Shown: in pieces, positions 54,160 through 63,090 of the stretch | Position numbering within the stretch: position 1 is the stretch's first letter | How the letters are laid out: every line of letters begins with the position of its first letter | Origin: an uncultured Candidatus Binatia bacterium | GTDB taxonomy: Bacteria > Desulfobacterota > Binatia > Bin18 | Assembly: GCA_965214605.1 (NCBI GenBank) | Contig: OZ243961.1 | Location: 1,536,001 to 1,600,000 of the forward strand | DNA: 64,000 nucleotides | Reading direction: 5' to 3' | Position numbers and translations under genes: made by a program | Notes under the pieces: model-generated | Told to the model about the DNA's origin: nothing | Database searches by the model: none | Seen by the model: only the letters and a program-made list of their open reading frames with translations

Positions 54160-57100
54160 TTACGATGCCTCGACCATAGGCGGCAGTTGGACCTGTTGTT
54201 CGTCGACCGGTGCTTCAACGCTTTCGGCCTCGATTGCGGTATAGCTGGGGTTACCTGTCCCGGCTGGGATCAGCCGGCCCATAATGACGTTTTCTTTGAG
54301 CCCCAACAACGTATCGACTTTCCCATTGATAGCAGCTTCGGTCAGCACCTTGGTCGTCTCTTGGAACGACGCCGCAGAAATAAAGCTGTCAGTCGACAAA
54401 CTAGCTTTGGTAATCCCCATGAGGAGTGATTTTGCCTCGGGCGGCTGACCTTGCTCGGCCAGGACCTTTTCGGTCTCCTCCTGGAATCGCCATTTTTCGA
54501 CCTGCTCGCCAGCCAGAAAATCAGAATCACCGACCTGGGTGACGGTCACCCTGCGCATCATCTGGCGAACGATGACCTCAATATGCTTGTCATGGATCCG
54601 CACTCCCTGCAGACGATAAATCTCCTGCACAGCGTCGACCAGCGATTTAGCGAGTTCTTTTTCTCCGAGCACGCCAAGGATATCGTGCGGATTGGAGGAG
54701 CCGTCCATTAACGGTTCGCCGGCTCGGACATAATCGCCCTCGCGGACACTAATATGTTTTCCGCGAGGGATGAGATACTCGCGCGGATCTCCCACGTCCG
54801 GCGTGATGACAACCTTTCGCTTTCCTTTGGTATCCTTCCCAAAAGCCACCATGCCCTCGATTTCGCTAATGACAGCGAATTCCTTGGGTTTTCGGGCTTC
54901 AAACAGCTCTGCCACCCGAGGCAGACCGCCCGTAATATCTTTCGTCTTCGTTGTTTCGCGTGGAATCTTGGCCACCACGTCGCCCGCTTCAACCTGCTGC
55001 CCCTCGGTTACATTAATGTGAGCGCCAACCGGCAGTGTATAGCGTGCATCAAGACCGCTCGGCAGCTTGGCCGTTTTGTTCACCGTCTTGAAGGCACTCT
55101 CATTGAGGCCACGAGTGGTCTCAATGATCTTCTCAACAAATATTTCGAGGATGTGGTCGAAAGACCCTCTTAGACTGTCCAGCACGGCTTTCGCATCTTC
55201 CACGCCCAGTGATTCACGCCTCAACCGCATGTCAGAACGCCTCAACCACACGAAGGTTATCAGCCCGGCTGCAGCGTCTATGGACGTACTGCGAATACTC
55301 CATTCAGCTACACCGGGCGTACCGACGCGAATACTCCATTTGGAGGCGCCACCTCCCCCTAGTGCTAATAACGCTTGTGTTGGTAACGCCTCAAGGTCCT
55401 CCCACATTTCGGTTTCGAGTCGTAGGGACGGATCCTGAAGAGGCTGCCGCATTGTAATTTCGTCACCAGCATCCTCCGCGGCTTTCTTAAGAACTTGGTT
55501 TACTTTTTTCTCCGTCAAGCAGTTATCGAGTTCCTGCTTGAACAGAGGAGCAAGCTCATCCAATTTGTCTTTCAACTTCTCTTCCAATGAGTCGAAGTAG
55601 CCAACGAGCTCTTCATCAGGAAGACGATCTAACGGCTCAATTAGCTTAAACCATGCTTTTTGTTTGGCAGTTTTAACAACTCCTCCCTTGAGAGCTCCAA
55701 TAGACCTGCGCAAAGACTCACGCCACTTACTGAATCTCTCCCGAATGTTTTTTATAACTTCTTCAGCAGCCTGTTTGACATCCTGCTTGATGGAAATACG
55801 GGGACGGACGTTCGGGTCTCGGAAATCGATTATGACTCGAGTCGATAAACCCGTCCGTTCATCAACCTTCTCCTGCATGGTCTTGTCGTCGATATCGCCA
55901 AATTTGATCGTGCCGCTGACCTCGGTCAGGATAGGCACCGTGTAGGGATCCCACTCCGCAATCAGTTCGTTCGGTTTGACTGTGGACCCATCCGTCTTCT
56001 TGAGCTTCGCCCCGTATACGACCGGATAGCGCTCGCGCTCGCGCTCGCGCCCCGGTTCTGGGCTATCCACAATAGCGACCTCGCCATTCCGATTCATGAC
56101 GACCAAATCGCCCTCACGGTTGATGACCGTTTTGAGGCTGATATAGCGCAGCAGACCCTCATTACGTGGAGCTAAGGTCGTTTGTTCTGCCCGACGACTC
56201 GCCGTTCCACCGATGTGGAAGGTCCGCATTGTGAGCTGCGTACCAGGCTCGCCAATCGACTGTGCCGCAATGATACCAACCGCTTCACCGATATTAACCA
56301 TACGCCCACGGGCCAAGTCCCGCCCGTAGCAGCTAATACACACCCCGCGTCGGCTCTGACATGTCAGAGCCGAGCGAATCCAGATCTTTTCAATACCAGC
56401 CTCTTCAATCAGCTTTACCCGGCTCTCGTCAATCTCTTCATTGGCCGGGACGAGAATCTCATTGGAGAACGGATCGTGGATATCATCAAGGGCAACCCGA
56501 CCGAGGACACGCTCTCCCAAACCCTCGATGATTTCCCCGCCTTCGACCAATGGACCCATCTCAATGCCGTCGATCGTACCACAGTCGTATTCGCTGATGA
56601 TGCAGTCTTGGGCCACATCAACCAAACGGCGGGTTAGATAGCCTGAGTTGGCCGTTTTCAGGGCTGTGTCTGCAAGGCCCTTGCGGGCGCCGTGGGTTGA
56701 GATGAAGTACTGTAGGACCGACAGGCCCTCTCGGAAGTTTGCGGTAATCGGTGTTTCGATGATCTCGCCGGACGGCTTTGCCATCAATCCGCGCATTCCG
56801 GCTAACTGACGAATTTGCTGGGCGCTGCCCCGCGAGCCGGAGTCGGCCATCATAAAAATAGGGCTGAATCCCTGACGGCTCTCGCGTAGACCGCTGAACA
56901 TCTCGTTGGCCACTTCGTCAGTGACTGCGGCCCAGGTATCCACGACTTTATTATGGCGTTCACCATCCGTAATCAGTCCCTTGGTATATTGATCTTGGAT
57001 TTCTCGCAGGACGGCCTGCGCACCACTCAGCAGCTTCTCCTTTTCGACAGGGATTATCATGTCTTGAATACCGATTGAGATCCCGGCTCGCGTTGCGTGC

Positions 57101-58953
57101 TCAAAGCCCATATCTTTCAGACGATCGGCAAAAATGACGGTTGCTTTGTTACCGGCTTTCAGAAAGGAACTGTCCAGCAGGCCACCGAGTTCCCTTTTCT
57201 TCATCGTCCGGTTGACCTCAGAAAACGAAATCTCAGACGGTACGATATCGTACAGTATGATACGACCGACCGTTGTGTCGACTAATTGTCCGTTCATACG
57301 GACTTTGATCCGGGCCTGGAGTTCGATCTGCCCCTGATCGTAGGCAATACAGACCTCCTCTGGACCGCTGAAGATTTTCCCCTCCCCTTTTGCCCCAGGT
57401 CGCTCACGGGTGATGGTGTATAGACCCAAAACAATGTCTTGCGTTGGGGCGATAATCGCCTTACCGTGGGCAGGTGAGAGAATGTTATTGGTTGACATCA
57501 TCAAGGCCCGCGCTTCGACCTGGGCTTCCACCGATAGAGGGACGTGAACCGCCATCTGGTCGCCGTCGAAATCGGCGTTATAGGCCATACAGACTAAGGG
57601 ATGGAGCTGGATCGCCTTGCCCTCAATCAGGATAGGCTCAAACGCTTGGATACCCAGCCGGTGCAGGGTTGGGGCACGATTAAGCAGGACCGGATGCTCC
57701 TTGATTACCTCGTCCAGAATATCCCAGACTTCCGGACGTTCCTTTTCTACCATCTTTTTGGCGCTCTTAATCGTTGTGGTATAACCCCGCTCTTCGAGCT
57801 TGTTGTAGATAAAGGGTTTGAACAGCTCCAAAGCCATGTGCTTAGGCAACCCACACTGATGCAGGCGCAGCTCAGGACCAATCACAATGACGGACCGCCC
57901 CGAATAGTCGACCCGTTTGCCGAGCAGATTCTGCCGAAAACGCCCGCCTTTGCCCTTGAGCATATCGGACAGTGACTTGAGTGGACGTTTGTTGGGCCCG
58001 TTCAAAGGCCGGCCCCGTCGGCCGTTGTCAAACAAGGCATCGACCGCTTCTTGGAGCATCCGCTTTTCATTCCGAATAATGATATCGGGCGCGCTCAATT
58101 CAATCAGGCGTTTGAGGCGGTTATTCCGGTTGATCACCCGTCGGTACAAATCGTTCAGATCAGACGTGGCAAAGCGGCCGCCGTCCAGGGGGACTAAGGG
58201 GCGGAGGTCAGGGGGAATGACCGGAATCACTTCCAAGATCATCCATTCAGGCAGATTGCCAGAGTGCCGAAACGCATTGATGACCTTGAGGCGTTTGGCG
58301 ATTTTTTTGCGGCGTGCCTCGCTGGCCGTTTCCATCATCTCCATGCGCAGATCTTCGGCCAGTTTTTCTATGTTCAAATCATGTAACAATGACCGGATCG
58401 CCTCTGCTCCCATTCCAGCCTGAAAACTGCCAAAACCGAACTCCTCAACTAATTTCCGGTGGCGGGTTTCGGACAGGATATCTTTCTTGCGCAGCGGCGT
58501 CTGGCCCGGATCGGTCACAACGTACGACTCAAAATAGAGAACCCGTTCAAGCTCCTTGAGCGTCATATCTAGCAGGGTGCCAATCCGGCTCGGCAGGCTC
58601 TTGAGGAACCAGATATGGGCGACAGGGCTGGCTAGGGAGATATGCCCCATCCGCTCCCGGCGCACTTTGGACTGAATCACCTCAACGCCACATTTCTCAC
58701 ACACGACCCCACGGTGGCGCATCCGCTTGTATTTGCCGCAGTTACACTCATAGTCCTTGGTGGGACCAAAGATTTTGGCGCAGAACAGGCCGTCACGCTC
58801 GGGCTTAAACGTGCGGTAATTGATAGTTTCAGGCTTCTTCACCTCTCCGTGCGACCAGGTACGAACCATATCAGGAGGGGCCAGAGCGATCCGGATGGCG
58901 TTAAAACGAACCGGATTTTGGGGCTTCTCAAAAAGACCAAGAAAATCTTCCAT
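54160..58953 (-). CDS. rpoC: RNA polymerase beta' subunit with an extra ~230-aa insertion
   Basis: [29 protein letters not shown]; 1597 aa. Confidence 0.99.
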
Positions 58954-58971: not shown

Positions 58972-61900
58972 CTATTCGTTTTCTTCGAGCAGTTCGACGT
59001 TGAGCGCTAAGCTTTGCAATTCTCGGATCATGACATTGAACGATTCGGGAAGCCCTGGTTCCAATACATTGTCTCCTTTCACAATCGCCTCATAGATACG
59101 GGTCCGGCCGGCTACGTCATCCGACTTGACCGTCAACATTTCTTGCAGACTATAGGCAGCACCGTAGGCCTCAAGGGCCCACACTTCCATCTCTCCCAAC
59201 CGCTGTCCGCCAAATTGGGCCTTGCCACCCAGTGGCTGCTGAGTCACCAGCGAATATGGACCGGTGGAGCGGGCGTGAATTTTGTCCTCAACCAAATGGT
59301 GTAATTTCAGGATATACATCACGCCAACAGTAACAGCTCCACCGAAAGGCTCCCCAGTCCGCCCGTCATATAGTACGGTTTGTCCTGATTCGGGCAATCC
59401 CGCCTTTTGCAACAGGTCAAAAATTTCCTTTTCTGGAGCACCGTCGAACACGGGCGTTGCCACGTGCACCCCAGTCTGGGCGCGCTCCGCTAAGCGCGCC
59501 AGGTCTGGGCTTGACAACTCTTGAATCTTGTCGACACATTCTTTGTTGGTATAGACCTCCTGGAGTTGGGTCCGGAGGGCCTCTTCCGTCTGGGCTGGGT
59601 CGCTGTTGTGACCGTTATCCATCTGCTCGCCGAGGCTACGCACGGCCCAACCGAGATGGGTCTCAAGAATCTGCCCGACATTCATCCGAGAGGGCACGCC
59701 CAACGGGTTGAGGACCACATCGACCGGAGTCCCGTCTGCCAAATACGGCATATCTTCTTCGGGCAGTATCCGAGACAGCACGCCTTTGTTCCCATGTCTG
59801 CCCGCCATCTTATCGCCGACCTGGAGTTTGCGTTTTATAGCGACAAAGACTTTCACCATCTTAATAATGCCGGGCGGCAGCTCGTCCCCACTGCGAAGCT
59901 TCTCAACCTTCTTCTCAAACTCTTCACGAATCCGGCTGATCTGCGCCAGCATGGCGTCGACGCTCCGACTCAGCTCATCCTCAACCACCTCATCCCCAAG
60001 CTTGAATCTCCCCCAGTATGCGGGAGGAACGGCCCGCAGCAGCTCTTCGCTAATCTCTTGGCCCTTGGGAAACAGGACCTTCCGGGTGTTATCGTCGCTG
60101 ATCCGAACAGCTAGAACTTTACCCAGCGTCAGGTCGCGGACCTTGCCGAAAGTGCTCTCCTGGACAATTCGAATTTCGTCTTCTTGGTCTTTGCGGAGTC
60201 GCTCGACCTCTTCGTCCTCAATACTCTGGCTCCGCTCATCCTTGGACACACCCTTGCGAGAGAAAACACGCACATTGACCACCGTGCCCTCCACACCGGG
60301 AGGAACCCGAAGCGAAGTGTCACGGACTTCCCCGGCCTTTTCGCCAAAAATCGCGCGGAGTAATTTTTCTTCGGGAGACAGCTGGGTCTCGCCCTTGGGC
60401 GTGATTTTGCCGACCAGGATGTCGCTAGGCGTCACCTCAGCGCCGATCCTGACAATGCCGCTATCGTCAAGGTCTTTGAGCGCTTCTTCACCAACATTCG
60501 GGATATCCTGAGTGATTTCTTCTGGACCGAGTTTGGTGTCACGGGCGACGCATTCAAATTCTTCAATATGCACCGAGGTGAACACATCTTCGCGCAATAA
60601 GCGCTCACTGACCAGGATGGAATCCTCGAAATTATAGCCCCCCCAGATCATGAACGCGACCAGGACATTCCTGCCCAAAGCCAGCTCACCCATATCGGTG
60701 GCCGGTCCATCGGCAATCACATCGCCGGCGGTGATATAGTCGCCGACTTTGACGATCGGTCGTTGGTTGACACAGGTATTCTGATTAGAACGCTGATATT
60801 TAATTAACGGATAGATATCAACCGCGGCATCACCGGCGGTTGACGGCGCGTCCGCCTTGATTACAACACGGGTGGAATCGACGCTCTCAACCAAACCACT
60901 TCGGCGGGCGACGATCGTTGCACCGGAATCCCGGGCAACGACCCGCTCCATCCCGGTACCGACCAACGGCGCTTCGGTGCGCAGCAGGGGCACCGCCTGG
61001 CGTTGCATGTTCGACCCCATCAAGGCGCGGTTCGCATCGTCATGTTCGAGAAAGGGAATCAGAGCGGCCGCAACACTTACCAACTGAGTGGGGGACACAT
61101 CCATCAGCTGGACCTGCTGGGGGGGGACCATCACAAATTCGCCACCCAGGCGAGCAGAAACGAGGTCCCGGATAAACTGTCCGTTTTCGTCAACCGGAGC
61201 ATTGGCCTGGGCAATGGTCTGGGTCTCTTCTTCAAGGGCGGACAAATACCGTACCCGCTCGGTCACCCGGCCGTCCTCAACTTCACGGTATGGCGTCTCA
61301 ATAAAGCCGAACTCATTCACGCGGGCATAGGTCGACAAGCTTGAAATAAGCCCAATATTCGGTCCTTCAGGTGTCTCGATGGGACACACCCGTCCATAGT
61401 GGGTTGGGTGGACGTCTCGGACCTCGAACCCGGCCCGCTCCCGGGTTAAGCCGCCCGGTCCGAGTGCGGAAAGACGCCGCTTATGGGTCACTTCAGACAA
61501 GGGGTTGGTTTGGTCCATGAACTGCGACAGCTGGCTTGATCCAAAAAATTCTTTTAACGCGGCCGACACAGGTTTGTAGTTGACCAGTTCCTGAGGCATC
61601 AGGGTCTCGACGTCCTGAAGACTCATACGCTCTTTGACCGCCCGCTCCATGCGGACCAAGCCAATCCGGAACTGATTTTCAACCAGCTCTCCGACCGCCC
61701 GCACCCGCCGGTTGCCAAGATGGTCAATATCATCGACAACCCCATTGCCATTTTTCAACTCAAGCAGATACCGCACAACTTCAAGGATATCCTCTTTGCG
61801 GAGGGTCCCGAGATCAAGCGGAGCATCAAGCTGGAGTTTATGGTTAAGTTTGAGACGTCCAACCTTGGACAGGTTATAGCGCTCAGCATTAAAGAACAGG

Positions 61901-63090
61901 TTTTGAAAGAAAACCGTTGCCGCATCGGCCGTTGGTGGATCTCCGGGACGGAGGCGGCGGTAAATCTCCATTTCGGCGTCTTTGGGGGAGGAAATCTTGT
62001 CCTGGAGCAAGGTATTCCGCAGCGATGGACCAATGTGAGACTCGTCAACAAAGAGTGTCTCTATAGTCGAGACTTTGCGCTCGATTAGATGGTCGAGGTC
62101 TTCCTGACTCACCTCTTGGTTGCACTCAACGAGCACTTCCCGCGTCTCTGGGTCAAGCACATCATGGGCTGCAACGAGGCCCACAACCTCTCCGAGGCTG
62201 ATCGGGATCTGCTCAACTTCAGCAGCCTCCATCTGTTTGAGCGCATTACGACTGAATCGGCGTCCTGCTTTGACCAACACCTCTTGGGTTTTAGGATTTC
62301 GGACATCTTGGGTCGCGCGCAGACCGCGCAAGAGGCGAGGCTGGAACTTCTTTGTGACACGACCGGCGTCAAAGGTGATGGTATCGGTCGGATAAAAATA
62401 GTTGAGAAGATCCTCAACCGTCATCCCCAAGGCCCGCAGTAGCCCCGTCGCATGGAATTTGCGGCGACGGTCAATACGGACATACAGAATGTCTCGTGGA
62501 TCAAATTCAAAATCGATCCACGATCCCCGGTACGGAATTATCCGGGCAGAATAGAGCAATTTTCCACTCACGTGGGTCTTACCCTTATCATGATCAAAGA
62601 AGACGCCTGGCGAGCGGTGTAGCTGGCTCACAATAACTCGCTCGGTCCCATTTACCATGAACGTGCCGTACGAGGTCATCAGTGGGAGCTCGCCAAAATA
62701 AACTTCTTGCTCTTTGACATTTTTGATCGTGCGGGCCTCTGTCCGCGGATCAACATCCCAAAGAACGAGCTGTATAGTGACCTTCAGGGGAGCGGCATAG
62801 GTCATCCCACGCTGATGACATTCTTCCACCGTGTATTTTGGCTCTCCAAGCGTATAACTGACAAACTCAAGAGAGGCGGTTTCATTGAAGTCCTGAATCG
62901 GAAAAACCGATCGAAAGACGCCCTGAAGCCCAGAGTCCATCCGGGCTTCAGGACTTGCTATCCGCTGTAGGAACTCCTCGTACGAGTGCCGTTGGATCTC
63001 CAACAGGTGTGGAATCTCAATAATTTTACCGATTTGGTTAAACGCTCGTCGGAAGCGAAAATTATTTGCCAGCTGCAACGCCATCCCCAC
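58972..63090 (-). CDS. rpoB: RNA polymerase beta subunit
   Basis: [32 protein letters not shown]. Confidence 0.99.

Follow-up and report, generated by a model that had tools for sequence, protein, structure and literature searches.

A predicted helical module inside SI3 of RNA polymerase β′ in Candidatus Binatia, with signs of exchange between rpoC alleles

The rpoC locus and the insertion site

The 64,000-nucleotide stretch of DNA analysed here (hereafter the window; contig OZ243961.1, positions 1,536,001–1,600,000, from an uncultured Candidatus Binatia bacterium) carries rpoC, the gene for the β′ subunit of RNA polymerase (54160–58953), as an open reading frame (ORF) of 1597 aa on the minus strand. 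All features of this gene described below are on the same strand. A Pfam scan recognised five Rpb1 domains (1–5) in the product with E-values from 7.7e-84 to 7.5e-18, and its NADFDGD motif is intact, as are the two trigger-loop arms. Between these two arms lies SI3, and inside SI3 we observed an in-frame insert of 236 codons, which is the subject of this report. A search of the same genome, which is 99.99% complete, gave this one rpoC match only, so that the cell has to rely on the insert-bearing enzyme.

The N-terminal trigger-loop arm, QLTMRTFH (56215–56238; aa 906–913), and the C-terminal arm, DITGGLPRV (54913–54939; aa 1339–1347), do not vary in any of the 19 aligned relatives. The portion of SI3 preceding the insert (55786–56214; aa 914–1056) holds the first sandwich-barrel hybrid motif (SBHM) and the first part of the second one. 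It is followed by the insert itself (55078–55785; 708 bases, aa 1057–1292), which is predicted to be all-helical, and then by the remaining part of SI3 (54940–55077; aa 1293–1338), which holds the hybrid-motif strands of the second SBHM and a match to Pfam RPOC_hybrid at aa 1302–1329. The insert falls exactly between RPRISIK (aa 1050–1056) and KTAKLPSG, which begins at aa 1293. An earlier reading made from the letters alone (the sequence-only reading) had placed 236 in-frame codons at 55078–55785, inside SI3 and between the trigger-loop arms, and these coordinates were exact.

The region between the two arms served as a query against 31 related genomes (genomes compared are labelled with G and a number, G000 being the window's own genome). 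The spacing from MRTFH to GGLPRV was 198–204 residues in 17 loci, 433 in G000, 413 in both G004 and G002, and 397 in G007, while two loci gave no arm-to-arm spacing. Alignment of the RpoC proteins of these relatives confirmed the boundaries of the insert. The empty alleles read ...RPR[IV]SIKD[DE]-xG[KRN]-T[AV]..., most commonly ...SIKDD-xG[KR]-TAKLP, and the filled ones read ...SIKxD-[V...V(N/S)]-[KR]T, in which the Gly is missing. The statement in the sequence-only reading that homologues have only a few residues at this point was therefore right, as the empty sites of the relatives hold three. From this alignment, the insert takes the place of two residues of the three-residue β-hairpin turn in the second SBHM of SI3.

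The SI3 of E. coli (β′In6; 188 aa, two SBHM) is carried between the same trigger-loop arms, and is comparable with the 198–204 residues found in the relatives without the insert. The pre-insert part of the window's SI3 (query residues 1–146, which are aa 901–1046) aligned to E. coli β′ 924–1066 and to 2auk_A and 4iqz_A, two chains from SI3 crystal structures. The post-insert part (query residues 396–459, which are aa 1296–1359) aligned to residues 1089–1153 of 7xya_D, comprising the last SI3 strands and the second arm. By our own residue count, the E. coli equivalent of the site lies roughly at β′ 1081–1086.

The insert also differs from its host gene in composition. Its GC content is 0.493, as against 0.547 in the remaining rpoC, and its GC content at third codon positions (GC3) is 0.51, as against 0.63. 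A GC3 of 0.51 or less was found in just 35 of 3306 windows of 236 codons taken from the long ORFs of the same genome, whose median GC3 is 0.673. The low GC pointed out in the sequence-only reading was counted correctly (22/60 at 55621–55680 and 37/60 at 56041–56100), but the contrast over the whole insert is milder than these two samples.

Besides the insert, other length differences of rpoC were seen among the compared genomes. G007 (L021:4319–4948, plus strand) has an unrelated insert of ∼196–210 residues in the same SBHM, after TRVII and 14 residues upstream of the G000 site, which in this genome keeps the ordinary empty turn. This second insert consists of direct DNA repeats of ∼180–190 nt, with copies mostly 93–98% alike according to a direct-repeat tool, although Tandem Repeats Finder gave 0 rows for it; it looks like a recently expanded coiled-coil-like addition. 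In G014 (L022) and G022 (L023) the rpoC-containing frames are 1680 and 1539 aa long with normal arm spacing (202 and 203), and the extra length in G014 is an upstream extension ahead of the usual MED start. In the window, rpoC is neighboured by rpoB (58972–63090, minus strand).

Presumed retention, evolution and predicted structure of the insert

The insert is not an error of this particular assembly as far as independent sequences can tell. Homologous inserts at the same site occur in three other genomes and in 17 further database proteins, and contigs of three other studies cover the junctions. One of these (X4), a contig of 2459 bases, matches 54800–56048 with a single difference and thus crosses both junctions, and the contigs X6 and X7 of two further studies bridge the 55785/55786 junction. 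Nothing was found in favour of an assembly artefact or a chimeric contig, and we give this explanation a negligible probability.

A sporadic distribution in a conserved essential gene is what would be expected of an intein, and we considered whether the insert, as an intein or as an intron of group I or II, could be removed before the enzyme takes shape. The residues at the ends are wrong for protein splicing: the first is Q, D or H (followed by D-V) and not C, S or T, and the last two are V-N or V-S with no preceding His and are followed by K or R. This bears out the absence of intein termini noticed in the sequence-only reading. No Hint or endonuclease Pfam family was found at E ≤10 in the four inserts scanned (three homologous ones and the unrelated insert of G007), and the predicted fold is all-helical. 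For a group I or II intron, we found no Rfam match at E ≤1 in 54800–56100 of the window. The frame stays open from end to end of the insert (236 codons), G004, G002 and G047 have homologous inserts that are likewise open and show in-frame indels only, and selection on the protein sequence is visible in all four lineages (see below). Removal before the enzyme is made is therefore very improbable. A transposable element, a miniature inverted-repeat transposable element or another repeat was also rejected, with no inverted repeats in 54900–56000, no duplication at the junctions and a single copy in the genome.

One RNA-derived contig covered this region. It is a metatranscriptome contig of 1995 bases from a sponge metagenome run (X13), which matches 54800–56097 of the window with 12 bases in place of 55078–55785. 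It differs by ∼10% in the flanks and its 12 joint bases encode the ordinary empty turn, and so it represents the expressed insert-free rpoC allele of a relative and not a spliced transcript.

We measured the rates of evolution by the Nei–Gojobori method, using flank and gene values where the synonymous divergence (dS) was not saturated. The ratio of nonsynonymous to synonymous change (omega) was 0.41–0.56 in the insert as against 0.03–0.09 in the SI3 flanks and the remaining gene. The inserts of the four lineages are 33–68% identical and share 53 invariant columns, most of which are at the ends. In a species-level population of G002 type, represented by 17 alleles, 64 of 220 columns were variable in the insert as against 39 of 1368 elsewhere, and the mean pairwise amino-acid difference was 6.7% in the insert and 0.55% elsewhere. 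From these comparisons, the insert evolves ∼10 times faster than the remaining β′, under weak purifying selection. Since selection acts on the reading frame, the insert presumably stays in the mature protein.

Such a high rate raises the question whether the insert is a functionless passenger, arisen by one insertion into a tolerant surface turn and since then persisting and drifting, with selection only for an open frame and for harmlessness. Its omega, far above that of its host, would be expected on this explanation, and so would the similar rates at which codon positions 1–3 diverge in the middle of the insert, the ten-fold density of amino-acid polymorphism within a population and the slippage-type duplications of the G000 copy described below. 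The unrelated, repeat-built insert of G007 further shows that the same SBHM tolerates additions. However, omega was below 1 in all 19 segment-by-pair comparisons for which it could be computed, and 53 columns have stayed invariant across four lineages whose identity goes down to 33%. We hold a functionless passenger to be possible but rather unlikely.

Two observations on rates and lengths concern rpoC outside the insert. In the small-genome members of the genus, G006 (L015) and G007 (L021), both of 3.6 Mb, omega of SI3 was 0.24 and 0.33 as against ∼0.05 in the others, and that of the remaining rpoC was 0.14 and 0.09. In the G002 reference allele (P0007), an in-frame difference of eight residues lies near aa 510, after the catalytic domain, and is missing from the other 16 alleles; either a genuine micro-insertion or a fault of assembly could account for it.

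The structure of the insert was predicted by AlphaFold2, both within aa 901–1361, with 19 aligned relatives, and alone, with four aligned homologues. In the first model, the β strands of the SBHM had a per-residue confidence (pLDDT) of ∼74–88 and the insert was helical with a pLDDT of mostly ∼50–70. The second model gave eight helices and almost no strand, with a mean pLDDT of 55.8. The charged helical segment of the sequence-only reading thus reappears in the predictions, at low confidence. Although it lies within SI3, the insert is not an SBHM unit: in comparison with E. coli SI3, the extra 236 residues are predicted to be all-helical and are placed inside the hairpin turn of the second SBHM. 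The models describe a helical domain of ∼26 kDa, whose N- and C-terminal helices probably pair as a stalk, because both ends of the insert join one hairpin tip.

The insert can be divided into four segments, with window coordinates obtained by arithmetic (insert residue i corresponds to 55786−3i to 55788−3i). Residues 2–54 (55624–55782) form two N-terminal helices (2–34 and 40–54), in which invariant columns cluster; omega of this segment was the lowest in three of five pairs, with values of 0.19–0.41 in four of the five and 0.78 in one. They are followed by two long charged helices (57–87 and 92–113) in residues 57–113 (55447–55617; omega 0.53–0.90). Residues 114–192 (55210–55446), a variable linker and a Gly-rich hydrophobic hairpin, are the least confident and most variable segment, with a helix predicted at 167–188, a pLDDT below 50 at 114–133 and 142–192, and an amino-acid identity of 19–56% from carrier to carrier. 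Residues 195–235 (55081–55203) form a long helix at the C-terminus, by which the chain returns to the SBHM strand. The conserved end of this helix reads ...ESAFKTVN, and the last eight insert residues are invariant in the three carriers of the same genus.

The hydrophobic segment of the window's copy has two local duplications. A tandem duplication of 36 nt at 55291–55340, with exact 14-nt copies at 55291–55304 and 55327–55340, is specific to G000, and a second one with a spacing of 21 nt lies at 55216–55250. In alignment, G004 has gaps of 12 and 5 residues that coincide with the 36-nt and the 21-nt duplications, respectively, and G002 and G047 have shorter gaps at the 36-nt one. Replication slippage in a stretch under weak constraint could account for both duplications. 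The Trp-containing β-like segment proposed in the sequence-only reading did not hold up, as it is the least confident part of both models and corresponds to the G000-specific 36-nt duplication within the Gly-rich hydrophobic stretch.

The Gly-rich pair of hydrophobic segments is nevertheless kept in all four carrier lineages, and this shared layout of helices around a hydrophobic hairpin is one more point against a functionless passenger. A stretch of ∼19 residues with a mean Kyte–Doolittle hydropathy of at least 1.6 is the usual threshold for a transmembrane segment. The highest 19-residue values were 1.62 in G004, 2.00 in G002 and 1.99 in G047, all reaching this threshold and all above the maximum of the remaining β′ (1.25). 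This would suit a tether, in which the hairpin enters the membrane or associates with itself and so localises or pairs the polymerase. The window's own copy, however, reaches only 1.07 and is below the threshold; the hydrophobic helices are short and could as well be the core of a soluble bundle, and no fold match to a membrane-inserting bundle was obtained. A homodimer prediction of the insert, made without control runs, scored 0.00, an outcome that speaks neither for nor against self-association. A protein atlas gave two leads of this kind, a mitofusin-like region (0.86) and a Gly-zipper (0.85), both weak and under the level that counts. We consider a tether improbable.

We observed no relative of the insert outside RpoC in any of the searches. 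No Pfam family reached the cut-off in the four scanned inserts, where only sub-threshold matches of coiled-coil type appeared. When 1.84 billion representative proteins were searched exhaustively with a profile of a three-sequence alignment, there were 0 matches at E ≤0.001; the carriers themselves did not appear either, presumably since an insert-free RpoC stands for each of the 50% clusters to which they belong. With a four-sequence alignment, a word-based search among proteins of 118–424 aa passed 0 of 7999 scored candidates. A search among longer proteins gave 19 matches, all of them RpoC of 1176–1597 aa, namely the window's own, that of G004 and 17 alleles of one G002-type population; with the G047 insert as a query, the word-based search among longer proteins found G047's own protein alone. 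There was no paralogue of the insert in its own genome at the level of protein or DNA, where other DNA matches were 16–24 bases long with E >1.

Comparison of predicted structures gave a similar outcome. A Foldseek search against the PDB found nothing at E ≤0.001. A colicin of pore-forming type, 1col_A, whose fold has about ten helices packed around a hydrophobic hairpin, was at rank 37 with an E-value of 1.1 and a TM-score of 0.19–0.22, the query model being of low confidence. In a wide VIA-align search the best Z was 7.6, which is below the meaningful level for helical models and generic for elongated helical bundles. The protein atlas recognition of the insert was 1604, as against 2300 reached by 91 of 100 proteins of known families, and it matched hypothetical proteins only. 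A class-wide search for the insert also gave five weak matches (E 0.0014–0.0056) in one other family, limited to profile positions 50–115, one of them in G371. One of these matches (L043) is not rpoC but an ORF of 470 aa that adjoins an ATPase-like ORF; we ascribe all five to a chance resemblance between charged helices. The structural checks proposed in the sequence-only reading thus agree with its view that the domain is novel, giving a helical model with no fold match at E ≤0.001; its view that the domain is foreign is not shown, given that neither a free-standing nor any other homologue was present among the 1.84 billion representative proteins or the 7999 candidates.

Distribution and probable exchange between rpoC alleles

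In searches with a profile of the insert, we found carriers in 4 of 55 genomes of the family, and these were also the only 4 among 401 sampled genomes of the class. Three belong to the window's genus of eight genomes (G000, G002 and G004) and one to the 28 genomes of a sister genus (G047). Within the window's genus the site is empty in G001, G003, G005 and G006, and G007 has the empty turn as well. In the sister genus, the two flanks are adjacent in 22 of 22 genomes with a DNA match among the other 27, and the five genomes without a DNA match had no profile match either.

Carriers and non-carriers can be very close relatives. The insert-bearing rpoC of G004 is otherwise 99% identical to the insert-free genes of G001 and G005 (dS 0.10–0.14), and the closest insert-free relatives of G047 are 87–91% identical to it in the flanks. 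Because close relatives do without it, the module appears to be dispensable for basic transcription, an accessory of the enzyme. That these relatives thrive without the insert would also be expected of a functionless passenger.

This distribution could have arisen by vertical inheritance only, in which case the insert would go back to the ancestor shared by both genera and would have been lost many times. The tree of the inserts (G000 with G004, then G002, then G047) indeed agrees with that of the hosts, and the ratio of synonymous divergence between insert and flanks is similar in all six pairs of carriers, so that vertical descent with a uniformly slower synonymous clock in the insert would fit equally. 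However, as G047 is nested among insert-free genomes, several independent losses would be needed in the sister genus alone. The empty sites also do not look like scars. Those of G001 and G005 retain the ancestral xG[KR] turn, while deletion of the insert from a filled allele would leave one codon fewer and a different residue; simple deletion of a filled allele therefore cannot give these sites. From this we take it that allelic exchange occurred at the G004 site. In G004, donor-like bases are present only in codons that touch the insert.

The flanks of the G047 insert were more informative. We scored the sites at which the five closest relatives of G047 agree and G002 differs, and took as the adjoining zone the 15 codons ahead of the insert and the 30 codons after it. 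Within this zone, 11 of 26 such sites in G047 carry the base of G002, while elsewhere 8 of 128 do (Fisher p = 1.3e-5). Of the 11 G002-type bases in the zone, seven are synonymous, and convergent adaptation of the protein therefore does not explain them. Compared with these five relatives, G047 has a baseline divergence of 0.03–0.12, which increases to 0.16–0.22 immediately upstream of the insert and to 0.19–0.27 immediately downstream. From G002 it usually diverges by 0.2–0.3, but over ∼60 downstream codons by 0.11–0.17. Such a mosaic, mostly at synonymous sites, is hard to obtain by vertical inheritance only.

Composition and synonymous divergence of the inserts were compared with those of their hosts. 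GC3 of the insert is 0.51, 0.50, 0.43 and 0.46 in hosts with an rpoC GC3 of 0.63, 0.76, 0.52 and 0.61, respectively, and so does not follow the host as it would be expected to do on vertical descent. The divergence at four-fold sites in insert and flanks was 0.19/0.40, 0.35/0.65, 0.36/0.65, 0.45/0.67, 0.39/0.64 and 0.53/0.64 in the six pairs. In five of them the insert value was roughly half the flank value, and resampling reached the observed value in 0–86 of 10000 trials; in the sixth pair this was the case in 1027 of 10000.

The mosaic flanks of G047, the low GC3 in every host and the halved synonymous divergence together point to exchange by homologous recombination, and we regard inheritance by descent and loss alone as unlikely. 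All carriers share the Gly-less junction, which suggests that the insert had a single origin. We read the data as at least one putative transfer across the genus boundary, followed by ongoing allelic exchange among close relatives. The sequence-only reading had called the domain recently captured. Distribution and flanks are in line with the lateral movement implied by that term, but the shared junction and an identity of only 33–68% argue for an element that is old but mobile. Import followed by retention suggests that the module may pay in some settings, and would be hard to square with a neutral or costly load of 700 bases, as a functionless passenger would be, on a part that moves in each catalytic cycle.

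A putative accessory surface on the trigger-loop domain

Taken together, these data make it reasonably probable, in our judgement, that the insert is a genuine, translated, in-frame accessory helical module at the SBHM hairpin tip of SI3, which had a single origin, is exchanged by recombination as a presence/absence allele of rpoC and would add a new surface to the enzyme. The module would have arisen once at the hairpin tip of the second SBHM, replacing two turn residues, and its terminal helices, as a stalk, would carry the more variable helical part with the Gly-rich hydrophobic hairpin. Homologous recombination in the conserved flanks would move it between the rpoC alleles of related Binatia, including across the genus boundary. 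It carries no machinery of its own for splicing or homing.

Several of the observations weigh against this account of an exchanged surface module. The sole RNA contig for the region is the empty allele of a relative, ∼90% identical, and no RNA covers the insert. Both structural models are of low confidence in the insert (pLDDT mostly ∼50–70 and <50 in the hydrophobic part), which makes the picture of stalk and bundle tentative, and among the four copies the window's own, with its local duplications there, has the weakest hydrophobic hairpin. As the donor-like bases of G004 are confined to the codons touching the insert, gain and loss would both fit in this genome. The agreement of the insert and host trees and the constant ratio of synonymous divergence, which vertical descent would explain equally well, have been described above.

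What an addition at this place might do can be considered from the known behaviour of SI3. In the passages of PMC6970531 on its structure, E. coli Si3 consists of two tandem SBHM; in the usual state the β′ shelf supports SBHMa and the jaw supports SBHMb, which when rotated makes contact with the secondary-channel factor TraR. The preprint of Bao and Landick, in the portion concerned with SI3 movement, describes shifts between open, closed and swivelled positions in each nucleotide addition cycle, by which SI3 tunes pausing and gates or resets access to the secondary channel. If it rides on the jaw-docking SBHM beside the secondary channel, the module of the window would swing with every cycle of the trigger loop, and its new surface might shift the balance between open and closed SI3 or limit the access of cellular factors or antagonists to that face. 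We infer the function, an accessory surface on the jaw-docking part of SI3, only by analogy with these systems, and a regulatory or anti-phage role would be pure inference.

A bolder possibility is that the module is a domain-sized rpoC allele that spreads because it is useful as a kind of armour, for instance by shielding the jaw and secondary-channel face from an inhibitor encoded by a phage or made as a natural product. We think this unlikely. If it were true, the rapid sequence turnover of the insert would reflect an arms race, and a single protein domain in a highly conserved informational gene would behave like a part of the accessory genome without any intein-like machinery.

Additions to SI3 are known from other lineages. 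The domain description in PMC10895346 gives cyanobacterial Si3 as eight SBHM domains, partly nested. To judge from that description, the Binatia module resembles it in growth by insertion of a domain into SBHM loops and in placing a large mass on the trigger loop. The cyanobacterial additions, in contrast, are SBHM copies fixed in a whole phylum, while the module described here is predicted to be helical, has no known relatives and occurs in 4 of 401 genomes. Section 2.4 of PMC11515920 catalogues the lineage-specific inserts of β′ as HABAS (SBHM), BEAN and sLC domains at seven locations, with HABAS only in the trigger-loop domain. As in that section, we are dealing with a lineage-specific in-frame domain, but unlike the entries there it is a helical module within the HABAS domains of the trigger loop.

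Similarity to inteins is seen in the patchy occurrence among close relatives, in the use of the same site in different lineages and in the apparent spread via conserved flanks. Unlike inteins, the module has no splicing residues, Hint domain or endonuclease, and, to judge from the selection on its frame, is retained in the protein. We found no report of this insert or of a helical module in SI3 in a literature search in whose scope Lane and Darst 2010 and the supplements of PMC11515920, which might list it, were not included. We conclude that it is a lineage-specific SI3 insertion, which is unusual in being helical by prediction, in lacking known relatives and in being exchanged between rpoC alleles.

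In the parts of the above sources that treat SI3, the additions described are extra SBHM copies fixed in large lineages; here a predicted helical module is polymorphic among near-identical polymerases. It comes with signs of lateral exchange inside rpoC, which is commonly relied on as a stable marker of vertical descent, and this calls for caution in phylogenies and alignments based on rpoC. The naturally matched enzymes with and without the module would allow a direct test of what load and which surfaces SI3 can bear, and also of whether parts of the core transcription machinery can behave like accessory genes.

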